A stretch of 50,206 nt of DNA, filler included, from Ionaspis alba (taxonomy: Eukaryota): assembly GCA_964255285.1 (NCBI GenBank). It is 2 parts of 2 records of this genome, joined end to end, with 100 filler letters (N's around TTAATTAATTAA, not from the genome) between each part and the next. Parts side by side here need not be neighbours in the genome. Positions count along the whole stretch, not along the records: positions 1 to 25,065 come from CAXUUL010000162.1; 1 more part is not named here. One strand, written 5' to 3'. The position numbers and the translations under genes are program-made. The notes beneath the pieces are model-generated. The model made no database searches. It had not been told where the DNA came from and saw only the letters and a list, made by a program, of their open reading frames with translations. Positions 7,432 to 49,098 of this stretch are shown here, in pieces. How positions within the stretch are numbered: the first letter of the stretch is position 1; each line of letters opens with the position of its first letter.

Positions 7432-7641
7432 ACCACTGCTGCTAGTTCTTTTCACATGTCGACGGTTGACCTACTACGTCATGAACNNNNNNNNNNNNNN
7501 NNNNNNNNNNNNNNNNNNNNNNNNNNNNNNNNNNNNNNNNNNNNNNNNNNNNNNNNNNNNNNNNNNNNNNNNNNNNNNNNNNNNNNACCACTGCTGCTAG
7601 TTCTTTTCACATGTCGACGGTTGACCTACTACGTCATGAAC
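7432..7641. other. Assembly gap (100 N, 7487-7586) flanked by an exact 55-bp duplication
   Basis: 7432-7486 is identical to 7587-7641. The gap is exactly 100 N. Confidence 0.95.
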
Positions 7642-8890: not shown

Positions 8891-9885
8891 CTAGCCTATC
8901 ACTTCAGTCGCCACGACAAGAAATCTTTCCCAGTCGTCCTTGATGTCTCGTGCCGACTGCTGAAGAAGGTCAAGATCCACATTAGAGTCTTTGATATTTA
9001 TTTCCTTCACGACATTCGGTATGAATCTCCGAACAAGTTCTAACTGGATCTTCGCTTCCCTCAGAAATGCCAATGCGGGACTCCGGCATTGCCGGTTATG
9101 ATTTCGGCAACGCTGAAGAGCAAAGGGTCCAAAGTCTTAACCCTTGTGACCAATTTGTCTATGTCAGAGACCATTTTCTTGATGTTGTCGTTCATCTGCT
9201 TTGTAGTCCGATGGTATCTCTATAAAGTTGCCTTTTGCTTTGAAGTGAAGTAGGTACCGAAAGAGGGTCCCATGGAATGCTCTTCCTTGTGCTTCAAATG
9301 TTCCATCTCTTCAATCAGTCCTTCCACATAGAGGACTAGTTCAATCATTACGTTACGACTGTTCTTCTGGAATTTCTCGATAGCCCGTGATAAGTCATTC
9401 GAAAGTTTGAGATATTTCGTTGACCATTCGATTAAGTCTACTTTGGAGTCAAACTCCCTCCATTTGCTATGGTCTTTCAGGTAGCGTATTGCGTGTTCGG
9501 CCGCCAATAGGTGCATTTTTACTGTCGGCTTCAATGCGCTCGTCTGGGCTTCTGCTGCGATCGACGGTATCCGATCACTCTCGTCTCCATGAGCACGGCT
9601 GATCTTGTCCACTTGCTTCGTTATTGGAGTAGGTGGCTGGGTCCTACATAAGGATCTTTCCCGAAAGGAAGATGCCATAGTCAGAAGATCAGAATGCAGG
9701 CCAATTGCGAACAAGATTGGAAGGAATATTATTACAACTTTTGCAACTCGCTTGACCTCCGAGAGAGTGGCAGGTAGTTGTTCAGTGCATATCCCTTTGG
9801 GTGCTGGACTGTCTAGAGAGTCCAGGGGCTCCAGACCATCATCCTTCGTGCCTCGTCTTCTGCGATTGGTTGTGCTTGATGCCAT
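8891..9885 (-). pseudogene. Probable disrupted gene for a single-TM, coiled-coil orphan protein
   Basis: A 221-aa ORF with a TM segment (VVIIFLPILFAIGL) ends at TAG 9222-9220. The same frame reads on for about 50 amphipathic codons, and a further helical segment follows in another frame (9073-8891). Confidence 0.5.
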
Positions 9886-12256
9886 ACCTTCCCAACCTTT
9901 CTCGATATTGAATATTTGCTCCCATTCTATGATCGGGCGTCGTGGTTGTGCTGTCGTTGTGGAGAGAATATGCTTAGTAGCGCGGGCCCATTCTATTGTG
10001 CTTGATGTTGGCGTGGTTCTTCAAGACGAGTATCACTCGAGGTCGCTCCAGTATGGTCCTATATGTATATCAACCAAAAGAACATGGCCTGGCTGTGAAA
10101 ATGTTCTGTTGTAGTATGGAACAATGAACATATGATTGCAACTGTCGACATTTTCAGAATTCGCCAACTGGTTGATTCCACTGTCCTCTGACGTTTGCAG
10201 AGTCGATATCCAGAAACCGCATTGCAGATCAATCATCGTAATTTGCTGGAGCAAAGGTTTCGTTTTCTGGATTATGAGTAAGTTAGACTACTTTAACTCT
10301 CATGCATACATCTCTCTCAACATAGAATGGTATAGATAGCGCCTTAGAAGTCTCGTAGCACGCATGCCACAAAAGCAGTACTTTAGCGGGCGGTCGCCTC
10401 GCTAACGTTTCATGAAATCTTAATTGGACCAATCCCAAAACAAAACAGCAAGACAAGTTTGGGCGCGTTCCTCCCCTGTGCTCGCCAAAGCCTCGCTGGA
10501 CGGCTTCTCTAAGTTTATCCCTCTTCCCGCATCAATTTTGGTGGCCGTCCCTAACTTCGAAGACCAAAAGTAGAGCAATTGCCAAATTGTTTACAAGCTA
10601 CTCTCTTTCACCATCTAGACCAGAGGCCCTTTGTTTCTTTCTCAGGTCGATTGAGATGTCCAACATCTCAGCGTGTCACCTTTCCCAAGGCTGAAAAGTA
10701 TTTCAGACTACAGAAGGGAACTCCCCTCTGCTTTGTCTCTCGAAAAGATCTCTGGGAATGGTAGGTCTGCTTCGGTGCAGCGTCTGTCTAGACAGACAAT
10801 CGTCACTTCCATTTTTTTTTCTTCGACGATCTTGCCTATTTTCACACTTCTCCCAAGTATCTCTTTCCGATTGCCACATGAATGGATACTGCTTTCTAAT
10901 CCAACCACGACTGATAGTTACATCTGTTGGCCTCTGATGCTACCTAGTTTCTCAAGTTGGACAGCGCTGTCTCACCTGGCAATGCGGACCCTCAGACCAT
11001 TGTCAAGCAACTTGCTGTTACTATCGTGCGTTCTCACCTCGTCAGGGCCAAAGGTCTACCGTGAATACTTCTTACAGTTGCGGAGGCTATTCTTTTGTGA
11101 GCACAGGATGCGAGAGTATCTACTTGGATCCATCTCGAGAGCAAAAATCACTGCAATGTGCCTGTAACACTCAATGCTTGGAATAATGCTTCTGTCCTTG
11201 CCTGGAGATATTTCATACCTCTTACATATTTGCCCGTATCAAAGACCGGTGAATAGCAACTAGTCAGCTGGTCCATAGGATCCTTGAATATCCGGAAACC
11301 AACATGGTCCTGGGCGTTCAAGCCGTATTCGCTTTGGCGCGTTTATGTGGCACAGCTTTCACTGCGCCAACCTCTGTTGGAAGCGAAGGTTCCGTCTAAT
11401 ACGGTTTCCTATCACCTCACAAATTAGCAAGTATTGGTTGAGACTGTTGGAATAATTGCTAATTTGGGTCGAATCGAAGGTCTGAAAATAGAGAATTCGT
11501 GGGACCAGAATCGTTGACTCTCCCTACCAACATACTAAGCGCGGCATTACCAACAGCCAACACCCGAGTCAGGCAACAGCGGTGAAAAGGGTGACTCTAC
11601 GCCTGTCATCGATGTGCTACCGATTGTTTGCTATCGGTTCTAAGGCAGACTGTCCAAAGCGCCGTGGAGGAGTTATGCAGTCACTTGCCGGCTATCTTCC
11701 TGGCTGTTCCGACTTGGAATCCTGAAACCAATCCCTGGAATGGAAAGCATTGAAGGCTTTCCCAGCGGCCAATGAGAGATGACACAGTTCCCAGGGCTGG
11801 ATTGTGGAAGGCCAAAGGAAGCTTCTAAAGGAAGGGCCCAGAATGGAGCCCCCACAAAGCGGTTGCAGGTACTCTGCTCTAGCCCTTGGTCCCCTCCACA
11901 ACCCCAGCCCAATGCCATGCGAAGTTTGCGCTTCCGCACAATGCATGGCGCTAGACGTTGTTTGGGAGTTCCAAGATCCTTTGGGATCCCTCAAGATCTA
12001 ATCTTGACCGTTGTGAAATCTCGAGTACCAAGTATATGTACCTGAGGTGGTCGATAGTCTCTGTCGACTCCTTCCACCCAAAGAAACTGTTTCCTACACC
12101 TTGGAGACGAGATCCTCATTTTCCTGTATATTGTCGATTTCTTCCGTAGTCAGTCTGCTTTCATTGTCGTCCGGCGAAGCTGTCTCATTCGTCTGCAAGG
12201 ACACAGCCTGGCCAGACTTCGCATGAACCTTGCACCGATCGATCATAGCTGGGACT

Positions 12257-13399
12257 ATGCAAATACATTTACGGTCTGCCACAGATGATCCCGTTTCAAC
12301 ATTCGACGGTGTGTCGACGACTGATGTTGCATCCACGACCGTGGCTTCATCAACGAACGCGGCGATCTCAGCCACTACGATCACATCAACGTTATCAACT
12401 ACTTCAACGCAGGCACCAGCCACAGCATCAAACGGCGGATATAATTATGTTACCGGAGGCGGCCTTGCGGCAACTTTGATATTGGGCTTTTTTATCATAG
12501 GTTCTGGGTCCTACCTTGGTTATCTCCTTTACCTCAAATTCCAAAGACGTCTTATGAAGGCGGATGAAATCGACGAAGAGAAGGTTCTTTCCGAATCTAA
12601 TCTTAGAAGGTTGAGCGAAGCACATCCGGGCGATCTTTCCAAGAAAGGACCTACGAGCTTCGATGATATTGTTACTCGGAACGGGAAGGTTCTTGATAAA
12701 AGCTCTTCTACTAGTCGAGCATCGCACCCGTCTAATGCTAGCACCGAAAAGGCTGAGACCCAGCCTGAAGACCACGGCGAAAGAGCAAAGCCTCCAGAAC
12801 TCCCACGTAGACCTTCAGGCACACCCCATCCTCGCACTCCACAGCAGGTCTGGCGTTCTCCCCGAAGAAAACCTCCTCAGCTTGCAACTCGTTACCGGAA
12901 GGCTTCAACATCCAGTCCAAAATTGCCGACAACTCCGCCATCTGCTGATTGGTCGTCCGCAATGCCCTCATCACTCAGCACTCCGTCACGTCCAGACCTC
13001 ACGCGATTGCCGTATCCCCTGTCGTCCGCCCCGCCGACTACGCCTCCACTCGAACACGGGCAGCCTGTTCGGCCAACTCGCCCGCCGCGCCTATCTTTAC
13101 TCGGCGTTAACAGATATACGCCACACACTCCGTCGCCTCTGAGCGGCCGTTGCCTCTCTCCCGAGGCCAGTTCAGCACAGTTGATGAATCATCCGGCAGC
13201 CAAAGGAAGACGTCTCAGCGATCTGAGTCCGGGTTTGGATCCGGACTACGTGTACCCGATGACACCGGCGCAGATTGGCGACGGAAGGCCGCTTGAAGGA
13301 CTAGGGAGGAGGGGCGAAGAGGGAGTAAGTAAAGAACGGAGGGCAATGGAGGCCGAGAGGGGAGCAGGGCGGGAGGACTGTATTGAGCGAAAGGATTAG
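12257..13399 (+). CDS. Single-pass membrane protein: Ser/Thr-rich N-terminus, TM helix, Pro/Ser-rich cytoplasmic tail (380 aa)
   Basis: Uninterrupted ORF from ATG 12257. S/T-rich stretch, then TM GLAATLILGFFIIGSGSYLGYLLYL followed by basic KFQRR, then a tail with many PxxP motifs. No family recognised. Confidence 0.75.
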   Translation: MQIHLRSATDDPVSTFDGVSTTDVASTTVASSTNAAISATTITSTLSTTSTQAPATASNGGYNYVTGGGLAATLILGFFIIGSGSYLGYLLYLKFQRRLMKADEIDEEKVLSESNLRRLSEAHPGDLSKKGPTSFDDIVTRNGKVLDKSSSTSRASHPSNASTEKAETQPEDHGERAKPPELPRRPSGTPHPRTPQQVWRSPRRKPPQLATRYRKASTSSPKLPTTPPSADWSSAMPSSLSTPSRPDLTRLPYPLSSAPPTTPPLEHGQPVRPTRPPRLSLLGVNRYTPHTPSPLSGRCLSPEASSAQLMNHPAAKGRRLSDLSPGLDPDYVYPMTPAQIGDGRPLEGLGRRGEEGVSKERRAMEAERGAGREDCIERKD

Positions 13400-13808: not shown

Positions 13809-14018
13809 AGGCATTTGAAGAGCGGTGTCTGGAGGATTTGGTTGAGCTCATGAAGGAAGAGGANNNNNNNNNNNNNNNNNNNNNNNNNNNNNNNNNNNNN
13901 NNNNNNNNNNNNNNNNNNNNNNNNNNNNNNNNNNNNNNNNNNNNNNNNNNNNNNNNNNNNNNNAGGCATTTGAAGAGCGGTGTCTGGAGGATTTGGTTGA
14001 GCTCATGAAGGAAGAGGA
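13809..14018. other. Assembly gap (100 N, 13864-13963) flanked by an exact 55-bp duplication
   Basis: 13809-13863 is identical to 13964-14018, the same 55-bp length as at the first gap. Confidence 0.95.
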
Positions 14019-14391: not shown

Positions 14392-15445
14392 ATGGCAAAC
14401 TTGAATATCACCTCGTAAGTCCAAGTCGCGTGCTTATCGGCCACTCCTGTCTGGAATTATTTCACGAGAGAAATAAGTGCTAACATTCCCAATAGTAAGA
14501 CTTTCCCTCTCAACACAGGCGCGCAGATCCCCGCCCTTGGTCTTGGAACGTGGCAAAGCAAACCGGAAGAAGTAGCCAAGGCGGTCAAATTTGCGCTGCA
14601 AAAGGGCTATCGTCATATCGACACCGCTCTTGCCTACGAAAACGAAGCCGAGGTGGGCCAAGGCATCAAAGATTCGAAGGTCCCGCGCAAAGAGATCTGG
14701 TTGACGACCAAACTCGAAAACGTCTGGCACGACCGCATCGAAGAAGGTCTTGATAAGTCCCTCAAGGAGCTCGGCACAGAATATGTAGATCTGTGTCTAA
14801 TCGTACATAGCAATGGTTGAGAGGTTTCACAAGAGGCATAGGACTGACCATTCCTAGCATTGGCCGCATCCAGCCGAGTCCAAGCAGGTTCCCGACTGGG
14901 ACTTCATCAAGACTTGGTAATAAACAATCCTTTCAGATATTATTCCCTCCCCCTACTCTCTGCCACACCAGTATCTGACAATGCCGGGTAGGCAAGAAAT
15001 GCAAAAGCTCCCAGCCACGGGCAAAGTCCGTAACATCGGGGTCTCCAATTTCAGCATCAAGAACCTTGAGCGACTTCTTTCGAACTCGTCCTGTAGAACC
15101 ACCCCTGCAGTCAACCAAATCGAGCTCCATCCTAAACAGCCTCAACCCAATCTTGTCGCCTACTGTCACTCCAAAGACATCCACTGCACGGGGATCTCGT
15201 GCCTAGGCTCTTACAGCTCGCCTCTCTTCAAAGACCCGACGATCACACTGATGGGTGACAAGCGGGGCAGGACGTCGGCACAGGTACTCTTACATTGGGG
15301 CATACAGAGGGGATGGAGCGTGATTCCACAGAGCACCACTAAAACCAAGATCGAAGAAAATTTCGATCTCGATGGGTGGGAGTTGAACGAGAGGGAGATG
15401 AAGGAGTTGGACTTGATGGCGGATAGAGACGCGCTGGAGATGTAG
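14392..15445 (+). CDS. Second aldo-keto reductase (glycerol dehydrogenase Gcy1-like), divergent, 280 aa
   Basis: Exons 14392-14414, 14496-14802, 14858-14916, 14992-15445 join in frame. [52 protein letters not shown]. The catalytic tetrad is intact. Confidence 0.9.
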
Positions 15446-16183
15446 GATAGAGTTGGAATGTCATGTTCATCTGGGACTTGCCAACGAGAATTGTTGATAT
15501 AATTATTCTGGTACTTGGGCTCAAACCTTCGGGGGGAGGCTTTTGGACATCCACATAATGTTCGTGGCTTTTCTCGCCTCTTTGTAGTTAGTGCAGATAC
15601 GAGATGGAAGTGCAGCAAGCTGTGGCTGTTGGGCATGGCTCCGTTTGGGTCATAGAAATATCAGCGACCAAGATGTTTTTGGCAGATTCTCTATTTATGT
15701 CATGAGTATATAAATTGAGAGGGACGGAAGGTTTTCATTCGCTGATAGGCTTTAGAATGGCTTGATCCGTCACCGTATAAGGGTTAAAGTGGGTGAACTC
15801 CCCTAAACCCGTACACAGTATTTAGGACAATAGGGATAGTTATCCCTGGTAAGGGTAACTACAGTGGTCCTTTGGCAGTTGGACCCTGTGACCCTGTCCC
15901 CGAAGGTTACAAAACTCCATCAAGATATTGCGGATTTCATGCTAAGACTCACCGAGGAAATCCAAGAAAAGCAAAGAGTATAGTCCTAGATGATAATATC
16001 AATATTGCCAAGCCTATCAATGAACTTGGCGCACTAACAAAATTTCCCGCTGCTAGTCTACCAAATAGAATTCATATTTCCCCCATTGTTCTCATCTCAC
16101 CTGTCTTTTATATTTCACCTATCACTTTTTACTGCGACGTAAGAGCACTGAGAACTTCCCTTATCAGCTCCCAGCTAGCTAGA

Positions 16184-17507
16184 ATGGAACAGCCAACAAG
16201 AGCAAAGAGCTGGGTACAGGTACCGCAGCACCAATCATGGGGCTTCGACGAGCCTAGACCAGAACTGGTTAAAATCGTAATCGATCTGCGTTCGAAAGAG
16301 CACCAGCCGACGTACCACCCGGCTCCAGAAGCAGCCTATGGTCCGAGCCTATCCTCTATCCTTGCCCATCACCAACAGGCTAAGGTCAGTGATTCCGATT
16401 GGCCAGAATCTCTTAATGTTAGCATTGCTAATTCTCAGCAGAATCTGGAGGTCGGAAGACAACAGTCCACCCTGTCTGATGTCCCAGAGCTCTTTGTATG
16501 TTTGCTACCCTCGGCCCTCTTGTTTTTAAGAATGCTAATAGTTGAGTCAGCGAAAAGAAAATCAACGACCAGGCTCGTTCCAGGACGAGAACTTTAATAA
16601 TTTTGTATTGGAGCATGTCGCAGGTGCCGGTGACAATTACTTTGGTGGTCCTATACTGGATAAGTCTGTGTTACGATGGCGACAAACCCACTACACCAGG
16701 GCATGTGGAGAGGTGATCGGGACGCCGGAATTGAATATACCGTTACCTTCCAACATGAGCCAAATCGTCAAGTCAGTTGCTGTTATGTCAAGCGCATACA
16801 TGACCCAAACAGCAATTTGGGTAGGACCACGCCTTCTCCTCTCAACATTACATCTACATCCCTGGGTCCAAGGTCTCCCATCGAATGAAGAATGCGATCT
16901 AGTCCGGAAATCAGGTCAGACCTTTGACGTCGAGACCGAAATATGCTCGCAGGTTCTGTCAGTACACTCGCCGAAAGTGCAGCTTGTTGAATTCAGCGCC
17001 GAAGACGATATTGGAATTTTCAAACTCCAAGACTGCTATCCTCCAAGATCAGACTGGGTGAGCCCAGATTGGTTGATGGAACGCGACGATGCCTACAGAC
17101 AGAATCTGACTGCGGGACGGAAGGTTGCCTGTGTGGCTTACGATGGAAATATAAATGAAGGAGATATGAGGAAGATCAAGGATCAAGCTGCGATGCAATT
17201 GCAAATGACCTTACAACAATTCGCGTTCTGCTCTCAGCCAATAGATCCGGATACAGTTACCAAGCCACAGATGAAAGTTTTCGCTCCAGGGACTCTGGAC
17301 AAAGCAGACGCCAATGACAAACGCACTACTTTTGGAGTAAGTACTTCCTTGTCGAAAAGCTCCAGCGGAGGACCATGTGTTTTGTTGAACGAAATCGGTG
17401 GTGGTGCAATCATCGGATTGGTACGGGGCTACGAGCTTCTTTCAGATCCATACAACTTGATTGATGGCTTTCCCGTTGGCCTGAAGGCGGCGCTGAAACA
17501 ATTTTAA
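16184..17507 (+). CDS. Putative intracellular trypsin-like (clan PA) serine protease, about 404 aa
   Basis: Exons 16184-16384, 16439-16495, 16551-17507 (introns GTCAGT..GCTAAT..CAG and GTATGT..GCTAAT..CAG). Ordered motifs TAIWVGPRLLLSTLH (His codon 16851), EDDIGIFKL (Asp 17007), SSSGGPCV (Ser 17364), IIGLV. No hydrophobic signal peptide. Confidence 0.7.
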
Positions 17508-18212: not shown

Positions 18213-21200
18213 CTAACTGCCGTCCTTAAGTTTCCTGACCGCTCTTCTCATGCCGTCCAACCGTCCCTTTTCTCGAACGACCATGCCTCTCACAAAGTTC
18301 CTGATGGCCCCTCTCGCCATCCGCGCGTGTCCTTCTTCCCATCCCGCGACCTCGCCCGCAACGGTCACTTGTGTGTACCGCAACTCGCTGGCAACTCCTC
18401 TCTTCTCCTCCTGCGCTCTTTCCAGTCTCTCTTCTGCGTCAGCTTGTATGCCCTTCCGTGTATCATCGAGTAGTGCAAGGCCAAGCGGCCAGCGATCGGA
18501 GCGACGGAGGGAGGATCGATGACGGTCGATTGTCTTTTGAGCTGCTGCGAGAGAAGCAATGAGCTGTGGAGGGCGAGCAAGTGCCGCGAGGAGAGCTTGG
18601 GTGGTTGTAGTAAGGGCTGTCAAGGTGCTGTGGATTAGGGTGTAAGGATCTGATGCTGCAGGCTTGAAGACATTGGTGTAGGAAGTGAAAGCTGCCAGGT
18701 GATTCGCAGGCAGGAAGGGAAGCGCGGCGATATTCGTCGAGGTTAAATGCAGGGAGCTGAAGAGGTCTTATAAATTGAGATATTAGCCGGGTGCAGATAG
18801 TGAAATGTCCGTTGGAAAGCGATGACTGACCAGTAGAAACATTACGGATACTATTGACCCGGCGCGTGACGCTTTTGGTGGAGTGATTGACACTGCGGAT
18901 AGAGTCGCGGGCATGGCTGACAAATTGCTCTACTGTGCGGACATCGTCGATGGGCTCGTATTCCTCTTTCACTTTCTCTGTCCTAATGTCGGCCTTCTTG
19001 AGGGAGCGTTCGGCCATCATTTCAGGTTGGATTTCAGGTACAAGGATGAATTCCCAAAGAAGCTCGTGCGTGGAGAACGTTGGGTGGGCCAACATGATCT
19101 TGAGAAATTTGTCAAGCCGGACTTGGATGTCATGCAGGACCGCCCTCGAAGGTCGAGAGGGAATCTGGAAAGGAGAGCGAAAATTGGAAATTGATGGTAG
19201 CCACGACGCAGGATGCTCAATCGATAACCACTTGGTTAAGTTTTCAAAATCCGCCAACGATCTTCGACAAGTCGTCACAGCGATCATGCCATCCCCGCCC
19301 CGAGCGGCAGACTTAATGATCAATCGGATCGTGGAATCTTCCACAAAAAACGATCTGACCACTGCGGTAACACGACCATCGGAAGCAGGTGGATTCGACA
19401 CCAGGATCATATCATCTATGCGATTGCGTACTTCGTCGTCCTTGGCTAGTTCGACTGCCGTCATGCCTCGCATCTCTTTTGCTTGGATATCTACTCTGCG
19501 GTCCGAAAACATTGCCCTGACAAGATCAAAACGTCCAAACTTGCTCGCAACCATCAACGGAGTAAAGAGTTTGTCGTTTGGTGCGTTCGGATCTGTATCG
19601 CAATGCTCCAATATCCGTAGGGCCAGGTAAGGATCGCTCACAACATGAAGAAGGGTATTGCCTTTGGAGTCGATGTGATCATCTAGATGCAGCGGTTCCT
19701 GGTCCCCTTGTTCTTCCGTTGCAATCTGCAACGCAGCGTTGACCATATCTAGATACTTAGAATGGTCGTATGATCTGCAAAGAGCCAACAACGGTGTTTG
19801 CCCGTTTTTGTCCTTTTGCCGCCACGGGAGTAGAGTACCGAATTCCTGAATCAGCTGTGGAGCATTGAACAGGTAGTGAGCAAGAGTTCGCCCTCGAGTG
19901 TCTTGTCGTCTAAGATACTGCCGTATTTTCGTGACATCACGAAGCCGAAATACGTAATCAACCATGATATTAATGAGCCCTTCGTGAGCAGATTGTATTG
20001 CGGCGCTCAATAGTGTGGTACCATCGCTACTGCATTCAGCAAGAACTACTTCACTCGGGTAGTATTCTTCCAGTGACAAAAGGTAGTCAAGAGCTTCTGG
20101 TTGTCTAGTCTCGACAGCCATCATGAGTACAGAATCGCCCTTTGAGTCTTGTGTTTGACACAGCTTCTCTATGGAGGTATCTCCTTCGATTGCACTCGTC
20201 CTGGACGTGACAGTACTGGTTCGTGACCTGAAAGAGTATTCCGAAGCATTGGAGAGACTTCGTAAGTCCATGGAGACGCGTTTGATAGGGCGAGGCCTTG
20301 CAAGAGATGGATCCGGCTCTTGAGCAATCTGGAACGGGAAGACATGGGCCAAATTCGACTCACCAGATATATCCTCTGTTTCTCCTTCTCTTTCCGGGGA
20401 GCTTTCAGGTAACTTGAACCCATTGGATTGATCATGTCCTCGCCACTGTGGATGTCCGTTCGTCCCGGTGATAGATGAGTTATTGCTGACCTCTGCCTCA
20501 TCCGAAGACTCTTCTTCACTAGAGAGCGAGTTCTCGTTTGGCTCTAAGATAGATTTCATTTCCAGCAAATTTCCTTTTTTCGTAGCTTGCCAAAGCCGCC
20601 TATTTCTGCGACTGGCAACTCTCAAACCGCCCGAGTCGTGAGCAAGGTAGGACAAAACGGCCTCAAATGTGCTCAAGGCATAACCCATCTCACCACTCTC
20701 GACATCATCAATGAAGATGAAGCCTCGCACATAAGCCAATCTCGCCTGAAGATGTCGAACCTGAGATCTGATAACGACCACAAGAAGCAAAGAAACCAGG
20801 GTATCAGCATTCATGGTCATGGCTGGATGATGCTTTTCGGAAGGAGCTGGAGCCTTGTCAGTAGAAGCGTTGGCTGGTGGACTACTATCGCTCGAGGAGG
20901 TAATGATCTTCTGGGTTTCAAGCAGAATGTTCATCATTTCTTGAGGGCTGCCGGCAACGCCTAGCTTTCGAAATTCGGCCACTCCGAGGCTTAGTCTCTG
21001 AGTAAGTTGCTCTTTTCCTTCTCGTCCATCCTCAATTTCTATACCAACTTGAGCGATATCGATATACATCATATGGTGAATGCGGGATTCGAGCTCTTGG
21101 TCTTCGAGCTTATGGACGTTGCAGAGCCGGGGGAACAGAATTGAATCATGGAATTGCTCGGTGACGTAGCGTTCTATCAGTCTCTCAACTAAGGGACCGG

Positions 21201-22269
21201 TGAGCTCGGTAGTAGCACCTAGTAAAGATAACTGCTGCTTGTCCACTAATTGAAACAGATCAATTGCTGCTGTGACTGCATTTTCTAAGGTCTTCCTCAT
21301 GTGATCCTCTTCATCGTCTGCATAAGTATCTAGGCTCCCAACAGAGGACGATTTGGCATGACCATTGGAGTATCTGCCAAACACAAAGCCGTTGCCTTCT
21401 GTATGCGAAGAAGCCGAGGAGCGACGTCTCAGAGTACTAGATGGAGATTTCGGATGTACTGCAGGTAGTGGTTTGCCAATATCCTTGTTGAAATCCTTAA
21501 AAACCTTCTCCAGGCCAGATTGCATTTGCCGAGCGATCATAGGGAAGTTATTGAGAAGATCATTAAAGGATTTGATATCCTTCTTGCTGGGGCTCGTGGC
21601 GGTGAATACAGTCTCGCCTCCATTTCTGGTGATGGTGGGGGGTAATGCAGGACTCTTCAGGCTAGCTTCTTGATGGGGAAGTATTGCAGGAGTGATTTTG
21701 ATAGGCTCGAGTGCTCCGACCAGCGGTTTGGAGATGTAATAGATAAGCCATTGCTGGGCATCGAAAGTGTCTGGATAGTATAGAAAATCCAGATATAGCT
21801 GGGCTTGATTTAAGTTCCTGAAACCTACACGACCATATTAATCCACCTTTCCACGATATCGCTACATCCTGGTTTACCTTTATTGCTGTAAACAAATGAT
21901 TCCTTGACAACAACTGTGCGTCCGTTTACCGTAGTAAATTGCTTGGCCTTTCCTCTATTGTCTCGTACGCTACCAGCATCCTTATTCCCCTCGGACGGTC
22001 CGGCTTCACCAACACGAAGCACATGGCTGGCAAGAAACTCTTCGGTTGCCACAAGATCGATAAGGGCGTTTCCAGTATCTCGATCTTTGTGAGTTAGGAG
22101 TACTTCGGTCGTAGGAAGCAGGATGATCTTGCAAAAGTCAGCTAGGTTGTAGAGTCCTCCACTGACGGAGCTGCCAAAGCAAGCCACTCACATGTTGGTT
22201 GACGGGAATGCATTGAGATGGCAGGGTACTTCTGAAGAAAGCCCGCAGAAAGGGATTTAGGGAGTGCAT
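18213..22269 (-). CDS. VPS9-ankyrin-PX(-BAR) endosomal Rab GEF, Vrl1/VARP-like, 1291 aa
   Basis: Exons 22269-22192, 22127-21878, 21824-18831, 18766-18213 join in frame. VPS9 motifs MNADTLVSLL and GEMGYALSTF, ankyrin repeats (GQTPLLAL, GNTLLHVV, TPLMVASKFG), PX-like RRSLADFENL...LDKFLKIMLAHP, helical C-terminus. Confidence 0.88.
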
Positions 22270-25065: not shown

Positions 25066-25165
25066 NNNNNNNNNNNNNNNNNNNNNNNNNNNNNNNNNNN
25101 NNNNNNNNNTTAATTAATTAANNNNNNNNNNNNNNNNNNNNNNNNNNNNNNNNNNNNNNNNNNNN
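25066..25165. other. Artificial contig-joining linker with six-frame stop spacer
   Basis: 44 N + TTAATTAATTAA (25110-25121) + 44 N = 100 nt. The palindromic 12-mer gives TAA stops in all six frames. Confidence 0.95.
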
Positions 25166-42028: not shown

Positions 42029-45000
42029 ATGGGCTATTTCCTCCCTTCTTTTTTCCAGAAGCGCATATTGCGTTATGCCCTCTCCAGACTCAACTGGCTC
42101 GATGCAGATGCTTTGGACTTGGATAAGCTAGATATTGTCTGGGGTAAAAGAAGTACAGTGGACTTACGAGAAGTTGGACTAGACATAGCTGTAAGCTCCT
42201 CTCTCGGGTTGGCAGTAACATACTGGCAGATCGTGCTTGGCTGATATATATCACATAGCAACTAGCTTCCGTGCTCTCACTACCAGACTACGTAACCATT
42301 ACAAGGGCAACAATATTGGTCTTACGAGTCACGATACCTGCAGATATCTACGGTAGTGGAATACTCGTGGAGATCGATGGGGTAGAGGTCAAAGTCCTCA
42401 TTAGCTCTGATGTCAGAGGTATGGGCACACGCTCTCAAGCAAAGACGAAGAATGGGGCGAGAAGTGGGCTCCTCAAGGGGGTGAAAGCAAATCGACCGCG
42501 GAATACCCATCCTTTGGTCCACGACCCAGGGGGATTTTCAAAGAACCCGTCCTCCGGCAGCGCAAGCGACGAAGGAGGTAGCCCGCCGATCCTTCCGACA
42601 AGCATAGATCTTGCTCAGTCATTCTTACAGACCGAACCCCCTCAAGAGAGAGCCCAATTACAAGCTGCGATTTCTAGGTCTCAACAACTACATCATTCGA
42701 ATTCGAGTGACGATGGTGAGGAAGAGCTTGGGACGGGCCTTGGTACGGGTTTCTCATTACCTGGTTTCGTTGCCAATTTCCTGAAAGGAGTGGGAGACCG
42801 TCTCCGGCTAGAGGTGAAAAATGTTGAAATAGATCTGGATATGAAAATTGAAGTCAGCACAGGCGTTTCCCCAGTCTCTAGCTATCCAACGAGTTCCGAG
42901 AATGTGACCTTCAGACTGGTTATAGCTACTATGAGTATCAGCGAAGCGCTGGAAAAGGAGAAAGAGCTTCCGTCGGAGTCTGGTGAAGGCGGAGAAGCTA
43001 CCAAGACTCAATACTCCCCCCAAAGGGCAGATCTTCACATGAGCCGTCGGATTACTTTCTTCAACGTCAAGGGTATGCTTCTCTCCGAGTCTTCGCTTTT
43101 CGCTTTAGTTTCACAATTCTCGGGTCCGCCGTCTCCAACGGCGACACATTCTAGTAGTAAACCTGGCCGAAAAGAAAATGCTACAACCACGTCTTCTTCC
43201 TCATCAAGTGCGGCACTAGCCATGTCTCAGTCCACAATTCTAGATGGTCATGTGGAAACGACGGGTTCCACATCTGGTCTAGAAGCATCTATAGCAACGA
43301 GCGATGGAGAGAGGCTTGAAGACACGGAAATCAATGAGCTCGAAGAGAGACATCCCCAGATCCAGGATATGAACCATGAGGATTACTCTGGTGCGAGTCA
43401 GTACTCGGACTTTGGTGACAATAATCAGTCGCTTCTTCGTCAAATCGAAGAAGCACCTGAGATGAAACCAATCGAGGACTCGGATACTCTACCTCGGGCT
43501 CTGGACTTCGAACAACCTCGGCCACTTGATAAGGGGCAGGAGCGAAGTCACGTATCTCAAATGTCAACGCCTACATCTACCCCGGCTCTAGAAGCTAGAG
43601 AATCGCAGTCATCTCCGGAAGATATTTTTACTTCCATACCTTCCTCGACAGACAATCTCTTAGCTGTTGAGCCCAGAAGTCTTACAAGAGCTTGGGAACA
43701 GTCGCGGCACCTGCATACGATTTCAAGAGAAGAAATTTCCTCTGGCTCCGAGTCCTCACCTGAGCCGCCTTGCCGTGTCGTTGGCGCCCCTAGTCCTTCT
43801 GATCAGTCAAATTCTGACTCGGATGAAGACTTGACTCAGTCGAAGATTTTCAGTCACGAAGAGGCAGAGAGTATGTACATGAGTGCTATTAGCCAGCACT
43901 CGGACAAGAGAAATCCGGACAAGCCAATTCCCGGTGGCTGGGAAGGCTTCAGCTCCGACGGTGATGAGACCTCTAGAGCCTATCCACGCACCTCCGTTGT
44001 CCCTGAGAGACCATTAAAAACCCCTTTGCCTCCAGAGAGGGACTCTTCTGTTCACAAAGGTTCTGCTTCTTTACACTCGAAACCTGCTGGTCAAGAGCAT
44101 GGATCTCATGTTACTGCTGATGAATCAAAGGAGGAACTGCAGCATCCTGAGAACCCGGTCCTGCCAAGGGAAATTGCTGCAAGCCAGACGCTAGAGAGAC
44201 TGGAAGAAGATCCTTTGGTGTCGGAGTTGATCAATTCTTCTGGAAGCACTCATGATGCTCTGCGAATGGCGAAACATATCGTGTCTATCGAGTCATTCAC
44301 AATCGATCTTCCTCAAGATATGGATGACTCTGTCGTTGGAGATGGTACGCGAGAGCCGTGGCTCAATGCAGAGGCAAACAGCACAAACCACTCTACGTCG
44401 CAGGAGTCAGGTCATATTACGGAAAGATCATTACCTAAGAGCCCGAGTGCAGAGCACATACCCAATCGGCATTCGGCACAGCCACCCCCTATTTCAATAA
44501 CTGTCAAGAGTCTGTCCTTTCTTGGAGATATGGGTCTGACAAGACTGATGATAATGATTGCGCAACATTTTGTCGCCCTAAAATCCCGGCAGCCAGCTTC
44601 TGCTGTTTCTCAACAAGAACCGCAACATCCTTTGAAGCCAATAAAAGTTCATCTCAACAGGCTCTCCTGGAATTTTGTCGACGTGATCAGAGGCTATACC
44701 GATGCCAGGGCTCAGCGGCCGAGCCAAGGAGCACAGCCTCCCGTGATAGATTCTGATGTGCTTCTCACGGCAGCAATCGAAGACCTAGACATTCTGCACA
44801 ACATGAGAGACAGAACCTCTCGTACCGAACTTTCTATTGGTAAGTGTACGTTTGGGTACGCCTCCGATAATATTGTGTCGTTCGATTCCACAATCAAGAT
44901 GAGGGAGTCTATTCGTGACATTCTCTCCCCTGTTGACAAGGATATAAAAGTATCTGTTGTGCGAAGCCAAATGTCGTCGAAAATCAATGTCTCGACTCTT

Positions 45001-48000
45001 CCACTTCGTGTCAGATTAGATTTAGCGCGATTGGATGAAACCTTCAGCTGGTTCGGTGGACTGAGTAGCGTACTCGGCCTTGGTAACTCTGTGATCTCAG
45101 TCGCTACAGTCGTAGACACGAAATCGAAGCATCAGCAGAGCAACACAAAACGTGTGCGAGGTGTCCGATTTCAAACCCCAGGTGAACCAAAAATACCACA
45201 ACCTCAGTCTGAGATCTCGCAACAGAAGGTGACTGTCAGAATAGGTGGGCTTCTGTTTGATCTCCAGGGCAAAGAATCCTCACTTCGACTGGAAGGCACA
45301 GCTTTGAAGGTGGTAAGCCGTGCTGAGGGTGTTGGCATGCAGCTTGATAAACTAAAGTTCAGCGGACCACATCTAAGGCAGTCACCAGAAGAGCCCGCAG
45401 TCTACGCGCAACTCGGAAATATCAGGATTGAGTATCTCGAAACACCCAACGAGACTGATCTAGGCAGACTTCTTGCACTTCTGTCACCCTCACGAGATAG
45501 AGACGATACGGATGATGATATTCTTTTGGATACCTTGTTGCGTCAACGCAGACAAGGTGGTGTTGTTCGAATCACAGTCGCGTCCATTGAAGGCATGGTT
45601 AAGAGGTTGAATGAAATGAACCATTTCTCTGTGATCTCGGAGGAGCTTGGGAAATTGTCGAAAGTCGCCAAATATCTACCGGAGGATGATCGTCCAGGGA
45701 TTCTCACCCTCGCACTCGTGCGTGACCTACGAGTGGACGTTCAGGTTAACAGCACCTTTGGTCTAGCTTCGATTACTTCCAATAACATGGAAGTGGCTCA
45801 TGTCTCTCTACCATCTTTAATCTTGCTCGGCATTAGCTCCCTGCAGGCCCACCATCAAGGACAAGAACTTGTCGGTTTCGCTCTGCCATTCGAAGAAACA
45901 CTTGAGCAACGAACGCCTATGATCATGACAAGATATATAGGCGACGAGCTTGAGCCAACGATGAAGTTCAAGCTGTGGAATGTGCGACTGGAATATCGTA
46001 TCTCAACAATCATGGCAATGATGGGACTCACCGAGTCTATCTCTGGCGAGGTTGTCATTTCCGATATGGTCAATTCTATAGCAACGCTAACAGACCGGCG
46101 ATCTTCTCCTAAGCTCAGCAGTCAGACTTCTTCGAACAGCGACAGGTCATCTACTGGAACCAAGCTTCTCAAGTTTGACGTTTGTATTCGGGACTCGGTC
46201 ATCGCACTCAATCCTAGGGGCTCTCAGTGTAGAGGCTTAATTGTCCTCACTCGAACCAACATCACTGGCACGTTCCCTAAAAGCGACGAAATTGAACTTG
46301 GTGGCGCGCTGGAGATCAAAAAGGCTTCAGTAATGGTGATTGACGATACAGATAACATCATATTTCCGAAACACCAAGCGCTGTCACAATCACCGTCAAT
46401 TAATGCGGCTCAGGTACAAAGTCTCTCGTCCATGGGATATGTTGTAGTCAGTGATATCTCAGCTGCCAAGATCAGTGTCCAGACAGTCCCATCTGGGAAC
46501 GAGGGCACAAAGACTATCGATATTGAAGTTCGCGATGAACTTTTCGTTCTCGAAACCTGCGCAGATTCAACACAAACACTGCAGAGTATATTGAACGGGC
46601 TAAAACCCCCCATGCCACCGAGTCAGGAGCTCAAATATAGGACAGAAATCGTTCCTGTGGAAGACATGCTTGCCTCGTTTTCAGGAGACGCATATGAGAC
46701 TGTGGGAGCCGGCGAAGGCGAAGACGACTTTCCTCTTGGTCTCGACGAAGGCGACATGATGGACGATGAGGTGCCTCAGAATCTGGAATATGTCAGCAGT
46801 TTCTACGATCCAAATCCTGCGTCGACTGTAGACGACATTGCCAACAGTATGTTGGAGGACGATTTAAGCTCTTTGGCACGTCCACCAGCCACTCGAGAGA
46901 TAGGCGATAGAAGACTTCTGCAGAGCTTCGAAGAACAATTCGAAATTGCACCTGGAGGTGAATCTCTTAATTTCAGTGACGACCACTTTGGTGGCACCTC
47001 CTCGATGGGCGGTACTGCACACAAGTGGAACTCGGACCGAAACACTTACGATCTGACGAATGAATCTCGGATGCGCGGAAGCCCGCTGAGACTGCGGATG
47101 CGCGACGTCCATATTATCTGGAATCTGTTCGACGGATACGATTGGCAAAACACTAGGGATACCATCAGTCAAGCTGTAGCGGAGGTTGAGACCAAGGCTG
47201 CCGAGCGACTGGCACGCAAAGATAGGCGGAAGTCCTTCGAGATAGAGGAGGAAGAGGACTCTGTGATTGGAGACTTCCTTTTCAATTCCATATATATCGG
47301 CATACCAGCAAATCAGGACCCCAAAGACCTTACTCGCCAAGTCAACCGAAACCTCGACGATTTAGCCAGTGAAGCTGAAAGCTACGCTACCTCAACTACT
47401 GCATCAGGCTCACCCAGTAGACCGGGATACATGCCAAGAGCGAAACGCAGAAAGCTCCGACTCAATCGAAGCAAGCATCACAAGATGACTTTCGAGCTCA
47501 AAGGCGTATCCGCCGATCTCGTAGTCTTCCCTCCCAATACTGGGGAAACCCAAAGTTCCATCGATATTCGAGTGCAAGAACTCGACATCTTTGACCACGT
47601 CCCGACATCCACCTGGAAGAAATTCGCAACCTACATGCACGATGCCGGCGAGCGCGAAAGCGGCACCAGCATGGTCCACATCGAGATTCTCAATGTGAAA
47701 CCTGTCGCTGACCTCGCCGCTTCGGAAATCATCCTCAAAGCTACCGTCCTCCCACTCCGTCTCCATGTCGACCAAGATGCCCTTGACTTCATGACCCGTT
47801 TCTTCGAGTTCAAAGCCCCTACCGCACCTCTCCACTCCAGCCCTGCCGACGTCCCCTTCCTCCAACGAGTCGAAGTAAACTCCATCCGCGTGCGCCTGGA
47901 TTTCAAGCCTAAACGTGTTGACTACGCGGGCCTCCGCAGTGGGCACACGACTGAATTCATGAACTTCTTCATCCTAGACCAAGCAGACATGGTCCTGCGC

Positions 48001-48755
48001 CACGTCATCATCTATGGCGTTTCCGGCTTCGACAAGCTGGGCAAGACCCTCAACGACGTATGGATGCCTGACATCAAGCGTAACCAGCTACCTGGCGTCC
48101 TAGCCGGTCTTGCGCCTGTTCGCTCCCTAGTCAACGTGGGAGGTGGTGTCCGTGATCTGGTGGTCGTGCCTATGCGCGAGTACCGCAAAGACGGCCGTGT
48201 CTTGCGCAGTATCCAGAAGGGTGCTTTGTCCTTTGCCAAGACGACGACGACCGAGCTCGCAAAGCTGGGTGCGAAATTGGCCATTGGTACGCAGACCGTA
48301 CTGCAGGGCGCGGAGGACTATCTCGTCCCGACCTCGCCATCTTCTCAGCGCGTAGAACACTGGGAGAGCGCAGACATCGACCCCGAGGAGAAGAAACATA
48401 TCTCGCTCTATGCCGACCAACCTGTTGGCGTCGTTCAAGGTCTGCGAGGCGCGTATAGGCATCTGGAAAGAGATCTAGTGATGGCGAGAGACGCGATCGT
48501 CGCTATGCCGGGAGAGGTTATGGAAAGTGGGAGTGCAGGTGGGGCGGCGAGAGCAGTGTTGAGAGGGGCGCCAACGGTGATTTTGAGACCAGCATTGGGA
48601 GTCACAAAGGCGGTGGGACAGACGTTGTTGGGCGCGACGAATAGTTTGGATAGGGGGGAGAGGAGGAGGGTTGAGGATGTGAGTGATCGTCTCCGTGTGC
48701 TTTTTTGTCTGTGGGATTGCGCTAACTGTTGGAGTAGAAATACAAGAAGCATTAG
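42029..48755 (+). CDS. ATG2: Autophagy-related lipid transfer protein Atg2, 2199 aa
   Basis: Exons 42029-42190, 42259-48678, 48738-48755. N-terminus [49 protein letters not shown]-terminus EDKYKKH. Confidence 0.96.
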
Positions 48756-49098
48756 AGGTTCTAGGAGAGGTTCCGAAATTGTGAAACCTAGGTAGATTCG
48801 AATGGGTCGTGAGATTGGCGAATGAGATTGGGTGCACTGCTAGCATAGCGATTTATGAGCTGCATTTTTTGTGTCTTCGCCCCTTTTGGTTATTTTTTCG
48901 GGACTTTATGATTATGACGAGCATCAAATACGCACGGGAAGGAGTTCTTTAAAGGAAACAACCACGAGTTCTTGACTACGAGACTTCTCAATATGATTTG
49001 TTTTGAGCTTGCTCGAAATCACTAGCATACAGGTATTGTGTTACATCAAGGCCGTTCCCTCGGTTTCAACATTCGTCCCGCTGATCCTAAGAATCGTT

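Follow-up and report, generated by a model that had tools for sequence, protein, structure and literature searches.

We examined a gene in a 50,206 nt stretch of DNA from Ionaspis alba (assembly GCA_964255285.1; two parts joined end to end), and refer to the whole stretch that was analysed as the window. The gene lies on the plus strand at positions 16184-17507 and probably encodes a non-secreted serine peptidase with a trypsin-type fold. It spans two overlapping plus-strand stop-to-stop frames (15797-16597 and 16542-17507), and the division over two open reading frames (ORFs) had already been recognized in an earlier reading of the DNA made from the sequence alone (hereafter the sequence-only reading). 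The first Met of the upstream frame is ATG 16184 and the TAA stop is found at 17505-17507; an intron is required because the two ORFs lie in shifted frames. The parts of the gene and the residues discussed below are the following:

16184-16495, plus strand: exon 1, 104 amino acids (aa; P0001) with ATG start; mostly Ser/Gln/Pro-rich and probably disordered, judging from composition and hydropathy
16238-16291, plus strand: conserved N-terminal motif WGFDEPRPELVKIVIDLR, residues 19-36 (alignment A4)
16496-16550, plus strand: the sole spliceosomal intron, 55 nt, phase 0, with GTATGT donor, CTAAT branch-like site and CAG acceptor
16551-17507, plus strand: exon 2, 318 aa (P0002) plus the TAA stop
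16851-16853, plus strand: CAT codon of the candidate catalytic His (exon-2 residue 101, full-length residue 205), in LSTLH, after strand 95-98
17007-17009, plus strand: GAT codon of the candidate catalytic Asp (exon-2 residue 153, full-length residue 257), in DIGIFKL, opening strand 154-159
17352-17375, plus strand: nucleophile motif S-K-S-S-S-G-G-P with exon-2 residues Ser268, Ser270 and Ser272
17352-17354, plus strand: TCG codon of Ser268 (full-length residue 372), in place of a conserved Trp
17358-17360, plus strand: AGC codon of Ser270 (full-length residue 374), in place of the oxyanion-hole Gly
17364-17366, plus strand: AGC codon of the candidate nucleophile Ser272 (full-length residue 376)

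The locus is a genuine two-exon fungal gene. Its spliced product comprises 104 + 318 = 422 aa; the frame of 422 codons is unbroken, and its splice signals are intact as well. The start Met and the N-terminus are common to P0004 from Lepraria neglecta and to P0024, and the exon junction VPELF/RKENQ is present in P0149 from Psora crenata, as VPDLF/RKENQ in P0004 and in nearly the same form in P0150 from Xanthocarpia. These spliced annotated relatives share the N-terminus and the junction and thereby confirm the start as well as the splice site. Exon 2 (16551-17504) is collinear over its full length with residues 574-895 of P0149 at 71% identity, and its C-terminus agrees with those of P0023 and P0165. 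The sequence-only reading had proposed three exons and a protein of about 404 aa; neither figure held, as a single intron is supported and alternative introns fall on conserved residues. Two candidates for a second intron were rejected: the only in-frame intron-like stretch in exon 2 (17058-17123) encodes a conserved PDWLMERD block, and the donor of an intron beginning with GTAAGT at 17337 sits within conserved Gly-Val-Ser codons.

Positions 17334-17342 (GGA GTA AGT, encoding this Gly-Val-Ser) spell a perfect splice donor, G/GTAAGT. The predicted proteins P0004, P0022 and P0040 depart from the family sequence exactly at this point and omit the segment with the catalytic Ser, and the tail of P0004 agrees with the window in a different frame. 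An error that recurs in gene models and removes the active site is the probable cause; use of the donor may also give rise to a Ser-less isoform. Two further introns are apparently present in close relatives (P0005, P0006, P0166 and P0170-P0173) and absent from the window gene, near 17230-17250 and 17415-17430. ORF fragments of relatives with 79-85% identity end right after FAFS and fragments of other relatives carry about 16 junk residues between IIGL and VRGY; at both places the window is contiguous. The window gene retains the 5' intron only, a pattern that, as far as protein fragments allow it to be read, would be compatible with 3'-biased intron loss mediated by complementary DNA.

For structure prediction, 70 relatives obtained by a profile search over 1.84 billion representative proteins were aligned (alignment A2). 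A first AlphaFold2 run on 15 sequences had given a predicted local distance difference test (pLDDT) score of 43.2 and was replaced by a run on A2, with a pLDDT of 89.1 and a predicted template modelling (TM) score of 0.88. In this model 252 of the 318 residues of exon 2 score at least 90 and only residues 1-28 are disordered. Behind this linker, residues 29-75 form a structured extension, and the protease domain itself is a double beta-barrel with two additions, a helix spanning 112-121 and a long insert, also helical, spanning 203-237. With Foldseek, at least 500 PDB matches reached E≤0.001, and every one among the matches listed is a PA-clan serine protease. The top match is V8 protease (1qy6, E 9.8e-9, TM-score 0.64 by target length), followed by Esp, Rv3671c (MarP), MucD, RsgI9, HtrA1/3, DegP/DegQ, Deg5, thrombin and kallikrein; TM-scores of the PDB structure matches are 0.63-0.67 by target length, at about 12-14% identity in the structural alignments. 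Language-model look-alikes of the protein are all Trypsin_2 clusters (score 0.97, 187 of 256 features), and 18 of the 70 family members give Trypsin_2 (PF13365) matches at E≤0.1, the best with E 1.7e-4. The gathering cut-off of 27.6 bits is reached by no member, and the window protein has no Trypsin_2 match even at E≤10; three of the matches scored 18.6-22.8 bits and the best E equals their best, so all 18 lie below the cut-off. A search of PDB sequences with the family profile gave non-significant similarities only (best E 0.048), and one with the single member P0041 gave unrelated chance matches. On the predicted structure, assignment of exon 2 to the PA-clan (chymotrypsin/trypsin) double-barrel fold is well supported, with His, Asp and Ser in trypsin order as the sequence-only reading had anticipated.

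All four motifs on which that reading had relied (GPRLLLSTLH, DIGIFKL, SSSGGP and IIGLV) are found in the exon-2 translation, with His, Asp and Ser in this order, and in the model both the order of His205, Asp257 and Ser376 and their secondary-structure context are canonical. Counting only the filled rows of A2, 36 of 48 have His, 43 of 53 have Asp and 38 of 52 have Ser in the respective triad column, and the Asp column is invariant in alignment A1. Two residues before the nucleophile, Gly is present in 47 of 53 filled rows of A2, and four residues before it Trp in 40 of 53. The family consensus is W-K-G-x-S-G-G-P, where the window has S-K-S-S-S-G-G-P; the unusual Ser in place of Gly, which had been pointed out from the sequence alone, is indeed encoded (AGC), and the closest fragment, P0173 (84% identical), reads WKGSSGGP. 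Each of the two window substitutions is one base away from the inferred consensus codon (AGC vs GGC and TCG vs TGG). The residue two before the nucleophile contributes a backbone amide to the oxyanion hole, as described in PMC4985261 and PMC5551965. According to the latter, KLK10 has Ser193 and cleaves slowly, Ser193 does not preclude activity in KLK10 or in factor XIa mutants, and Gly193 is not strictly needed by active serine proteases (PMC5551965). By analogy, the Gly-to-Ser exchange and the adjacent Trp-to-Ser exchange probably leave the window copy slow or very selective, not dead. KLK10 matches the window protein as an S1 protease with Ser for the oxyanion-hole Gly193 and slow, selective cleavage (as described in PMC5551965), but it is a secreted animal S1A enzyme and is a precedent for the substitution only, not a relative.

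The region without family match ahead of the protease domain extends over about 130-180 aa, close to the unknown N-terminal region of roughly 150 aa that had been estimated from the sequence. Exon 1 (104 aa) and the first 28 residues of exon 2 are disordered or of low confidence, and the structured extension at residues 29-75 directly precedes the first barrel. The N-terminus is variable in sequence apart from a conserved WGF..PR.EL.K..IDLR motif (WGFDEPRPELVKIVIDLR in the window) and an RKENQ.P motif at the exon junction. F21, I33 and D34 of the former are invariant in alignment A4 (12 sequences), and we regard WGFDEPRPELVKIVIDLR as a candidate docking or regulatory motif. When the exon-1 peptide and the exon-2 domain were modelled together to see whether the N-terminus docks on the protease, without alignments and with an uncertain partner fold, the score was 0.01 and the mark 0.34, which speaks neither for nor against docking. 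A signal peptide was not found, in line with the sequence-only reading: among the 9-residue Kyte-Doolittle windows of the first 60 aa, the highest (residues 27-35) reaches 1.57 and includes charged residues. Nor was a membrane segment found, with best 19-residue Kyte-Doolittle windows of 0.09 in exon 1 and 1.40 in exon 2. Inspection by eye revealed no canonical peroxisomal or mitochondrial targeting signal (C-terminus ...LKQF, acidic N-terminus).

Of the 131 relatives that the profile search yielded at E≤1e-3, 90 reach E≤1e-10 and 41 reach E≤1e-30; ORF fragments from intron-containing genes are frequent among the 131. Named members in the lichen-forming Lecanoromycetes come from Lepraria, Psora, Xanthocarpia, Pyrenodesmia, Polycauliona and Pseudocyphellaria; a distant branch is formed by the nematode-trapping Orbiliomycetes Orbilia oligospora, O. 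javanica, O. brochopaga and Arthrobotrys megalospora. Because only about a quarter of the database proteins carry names, this taxonomic range is a minimum. Members share 33-42% identity within the Teloschistaceae and 36-50% within Orbilia/Arthrobotrys. We calculated a quick maximum-likelihood tree from 50 rows picked by length, with short fragments omitted and the three fused gene models described below trimmed to their protease part. In this tree a Lecanoromycete-type clade of 28 rows stands apart from an Orbilia-type group of 22 rows, each with support 96, and the Teloschistaceae sequences are distributed over two supported clades. A close-relative scan of 185,579 bacterial and archaeal genomes with a single protein produced 38 pattern matches, none of which was confirmed as a relative. 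In the open-access papers and bioRxiv preprints searched, the locus tags of six named relatives are not mentioned, and a search by topic did not find the family. The family is uncharacterised and, as judged by sequence comparison, fast-diverging and barely detectable by sequence. The notion of a little-described family, put forward by the sequence-only reading, is borne out: no member reaches the Pfam gathering score. The distribution of named members is patchy, being restricted to the Lecanoromycetes, the Orbiliomycetes and one amoeba. The amoebal protein (P0125, 338 aa, from the heterolobosean Acrasis kona) has about 22-24% identity to the family and keeps His, Asp and Ser; its source name 'methionine tRS' looks wrong, and its placement is unsure at a branch length of 2.4.

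We conclude, with a probability of about 0.6, that the locus encodes a 422-aa non-secreted PA-clan serine peptidase of an uncharacterised, fast-diverging family of Lecanoromycetes, Orbiliomycetes and one amoeba. The protein would be a cytosolic or nuclear enzyme of limited proteolysis (a processing enzyme), not a bulk protease, and would cleave one or few substrates in a regulated manner. The disordered N-terminus of about 130 aa with its two conserved motifs would be the regulatory or docking part, as in Ssy5 and SltB, and the window copy would be slowed by the Ser at the oxyanion-hole Gly position and the Trp-to-Ser exchange beside it. We infer this mechanism from the PA-clan fold of a cytosolic protein, from the length and disorder of an N-terminus in which short motifs are conserved, and from two precedents in fungi. 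To our knowledge very few intracellular trypsin-fold proteases of fungi have been characterised (Ssy5, SltB and Nma111), and each of those we know of is a signalling or quality-control switch.

Ssy5 (MEROPS S64), part of the yeast SPS amino-acid sensor, is portrayed in PMC4985261 as an intracellular chymotrypsin-like protease responsible for limited proteolysis of latent transcription factors. On this description it shares with the window protein its fungal origin, intracellular location, chymotrypsin-like domain and a long N-terminal non-catalytic region, but the latter is a 381-aa prodomain in Ssy5 and about 130 mostly disordered aa in the window protein, and none of the 70 family members matches Peptidase_S64 at E≤0.1. 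SltB of Aspergillus nidulans, as the same source presents it, works in the cytoplasm as a chymotrypsin-like protease whose targets are SltB itself and the transcription factor SltA; Ser1142 and Gly1140 are named as the residues of its oxyanion hole (PMC4985261). The likeness lies in a cytoplasmic chymotrypsin-like serine protease found in filamentous ascomycetes, with the Gly two before the Ser assigned to the oxyanion hole. Compared by description, SltB has 1272 aa and a pseudokinase domain (PMC4985261), in contrast to the 422 aa of the window protein; no kinase-like Pfam match was found in the window protein or 27 long relatives, and the profile search retrieved no SltB-sized protein. Bacterial S1B/S1C proteases (V8, Esp, MarP/Rv3671c and HtrA/DegP; Trypsin_2) resemble the window protein in the double beta-barrel, the order of His, Asp and Ser and the G-x-S-G-G-P turn of the family. 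Unlike them, the window protein is eukaryotic, has no signal peptide and adds the structured 47-aa extension, the helix 112-121 and the helical insert 203-237. In contrast to HtrA/DegP (S1C), there is no PDZ match in the window protein or its relatives, and the window protein ends 46 residues past the nucleophile.

Several results weigh against a regulated, catalytically active processing enzyme. No Pfam family was assigned to either exon product at E≤10, the only hit being GbpA_2 on exon 1 with E 0.097, below the cut-off, and no PDB sequence is similar to exon 2 at E≤10. The analogy to Ssy5 and SltB is functional only, given the missing Peptidase_S64 matches and the missing pseudokinase domain. 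Both private substitutions sit in the most conserved motif of the family, as expected of a copy losing catalysis. His, Asp and Ser are all kept by only 15 of the 30 rows that fill the three triad columns, some of these rows being mis-spliced models or read-through ORFs, and catalysis is thus clearly dispensable for part of the family.

The last two points are shared with the most serious competitor, a pseudoprotease or a copy drifting to loss, in which the fold is retained for binding or scaffolding or constraint is relaxed. We consider this unlikely. The Gly-to-Ser and Trp-to-Ser exchanges are private to the window copy, where P0173 keeps the consensus, and half of the members filling all three columns have no canonical triad; the window copy itself nevertheless retains His, Asp, Ser and the GGP turn, in an intact frame with intact splice signals, and Ser193 has the precedents of KLK10 and the factor XIa mutants (as described in PMC5551965). 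In the 224 columns shared with five close relatives the window shows 8 private differences, which may be read as drift and compares with 0-11 in the relatives, but its distance to the Psora outgroup (62 positions) lies within their range of 51-65. By this comparison the window gene is not visibly decaying.

Less probable still is a protease of defence, allorecognition or cell death that activates a pore-former or executioner, or serves as guard or decoy in a conflict system. As this view makes predictions on partner genes, we list the surrounding features of the window here:

9220-10020, minus strand: frame without Pfam match, including 9223-9885 (221 aa from the first Met)
10655-11167, plus strand: frame without Pfam assignment
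12227-13399, plus strand: frame without Pfam match, 390 aa, with Ser/Thr-rich N-terminal part, hydrophobic segment GGLAATLILGFFIIGSGSYLGYLLYL and long Pro-rich tail
14419-15445, plus strand: aldo-keto reductase, flanking gene (Pfam)
18463-21837, minus strand: VPS9-domain ankyrin-repeat protein of 1124 aa, flanking gene, very long uninterrupted frame (Pfam)
42259-48795, plus strand: ATG2, 2178 aa, very long uninterrupted frame (Pfam ATG2_CAD, E reported as 0)
7487-7586 and 13864-13963: runs of N, 100 bases each
25066-25109 and 25122-25165: runs of N, 44 bases each

A death protease would fit the absence of a signal peptide, the restriction of named members to Lecanoromycetes, Orbiliomycetes and Acrasis, the very high divergence within family and genus (33-42% identity in Teloschistaceae, 36-50% in Orbilia/Arthrobotrys), the split of the Teloschistaceae over two supported clades in the quick tree, and the frequent loss of triad residues, as in decoy-like families. 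Non-secreted proteases are moreover described as activators of fungal gasdermins (PMC8851545), and HET-Q2-like enzymes, as presented there, resemble the window protein as serine proteases that are not secreted, occur in filamentous fungi and are patchily distributed. That survey covers 1,884 fungal gasdermins; its clustered proteases, however, are of S8 or CHAT type and lie at most 10 kb from the gasdermin gene, and the word 'trypsin' is absent from its main text (PMC8851545). The window protein has a trypsin fold instead, and no S8 or CHAT Pfam match was found in it or in the 70 family members. Our Pfam scan of the neighbourhood covered 56 stop-to-stop frames, 22 window-wide and 34 within 5.7-26.4 kb. 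None of the 56 contains an NLR, NACHT, NB-ARC, HET, HeLo, gasdermin, S8 or CHAT domain, with the proviso that Pfam may miss fungal gasdermins, and the 34 further frames gave one match only, to Mito_carr. The neighbours with assignments are housekeeping genes, namely the aldo-keto reductase and the VPS9-ankyrin protein on the two sides and, farther away, Tim44, a mitochondrial carrier, a DEAD helicase and ATG2; a family-2 glycosyltransferase, a SPRY protein and a Na/Ca exchanger are also encoded in the window. The presence of core trafficking and autophagy genes (VPS9-ankyrin and ATG2) marks the window as ordinary chromosomal DNA. The 'orphan-rich block' of the sequence-only reading is accurate insofar as several nearby frames have no Pfam match, but not for the flanking genes themselves.

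Fused domains give the same picture. A sensor or repeat domain is found in none of the 27 long family members (239-697 aa), and NACHT or NB-ARC domains with repeats are likewise missing among the proteins retrieved by the profile searches (35-1220 aa), where the only fusions are gene models with housekeeping domains. In P0149 from Psora crenata (895 aa) the protease is fused with an upstream mitochondrial carrier and a PCMT-type (isoaspartyl) methyltransferase, and in P0150 (650 aa) and P0151 (628 aa) from Xanthocarpia with a downstream DUF1279 protein. These models stem from metagenome-assembled genomes of lichen fungi; they are accidental records of synteny and would be misleading as domain architectures. 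The three fused models represent three neighbourhoods, none of which agrees with the window. Such variation between genera would suit a conflict gene, and a single-copy conserved syntenic orthologue, which would have spoken against a role in defence, was not seen in the visible contexts. On the other hand, neither conserved synteny nor a recurring partner was found across the contexts of window, Psora and Xanthocarpia; a lack of recurring partner genes, which these contexts show as far as they reach, is what the sequence-only reading had named as speaking against defence. From its proposal of a cytoplasmic signalling or death protease there remain the trypsin fold, the lack of a signal peptide and the changed oxyanion Gly; for the death part neither a defence partner nor a fused sensor was found, and it is unsupported but not refuted.

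A more far-reaching version, which we likewise hold to be improbable, starts from a previously unnamed cytosolic family of trypsin-fold proteases and pseudoproteases that would have diversified rapidly in lichen symbionts and nematode trappers, fungi whose way of life depends on close contact with other organisms. The family would serve the recognition of non-self or partner as a proteolytic switch. Active members would cleave an executioner or signal protein, members without the triad would be decoys or regulators, and the WGF..PR.EL.K..IDLR motif would be the docking site.

It is highly improbable that the family goes back to an RNA virus whose 3C-like or sobemovirus-like protease was taken up into a fungal genome. 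In favour of such a descent, the family profile resembles PDB sequences only in calicivirus 3C-like proteases, near the His (24-27 residues, the segment aligned to His205 presumably holding the catalytic His of these enzymes), BFVD structure matches include many picorna-like polyproteins (E about 1e-8) and some look-alike clusters have Peptidase_S39 or Peptidase_S7 on a minority of members. Against it, the calicivirus E-values are non-significant (best E 0.048), bacterial structures are matched at least as well as viral ones, Ser serves as nucleophile in a cellular-type GxSGGP motif and not Cys as in 3C, the gene stands alone with a spliceosomal intron and a GC content like its surroundings instead of lying in a viral polyprotein, and such an origin predicts no function.

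For the regulated processing enzyme that we favour, the well-supported fold assignment does not amount to the discovery of a new mechanism; what we describe is a distinct family with a very well known fold that is invisible to domain libraries. As a separate family missed by the current libraries, its members are annotated as hypothetical proteins only. The named ones come from two lifestyle-specialised classes of ascomycetes, and the family has an N-terminal motif and structural inserts of its own. With the family defined, the annotation of lichen-fungus genomes would improve, gene models that lose the catalytic Ser through recurrent mis-splicing would be flagged, and work on regulated proteolysis in lichen fungi would gain a tractable candidate.

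Among the frames without Pfam match, 12227-13399 looks like a low-complexity single-pass membrane protein. It is probably one of the orphan membrane genes in which the sequence-only reading had looked for partners, and nothing ties it to the protease. The 221-aa protein of 9223-9885 shows a single hydrophobic segment, and in its C-terminal half it is charged and helical; its look-alikes are unnamed clusters of fungal hypothetical proteins only (score 0.90), with a recognition value of 1932 compared with the 2300 reached by 91 of 100 proteins of known families. The four runs of N characterise the window as a scaffold with gaps, and the one at 13864-13963 falls between the 12227-13399 frame and the aldo-keto reductase gene.

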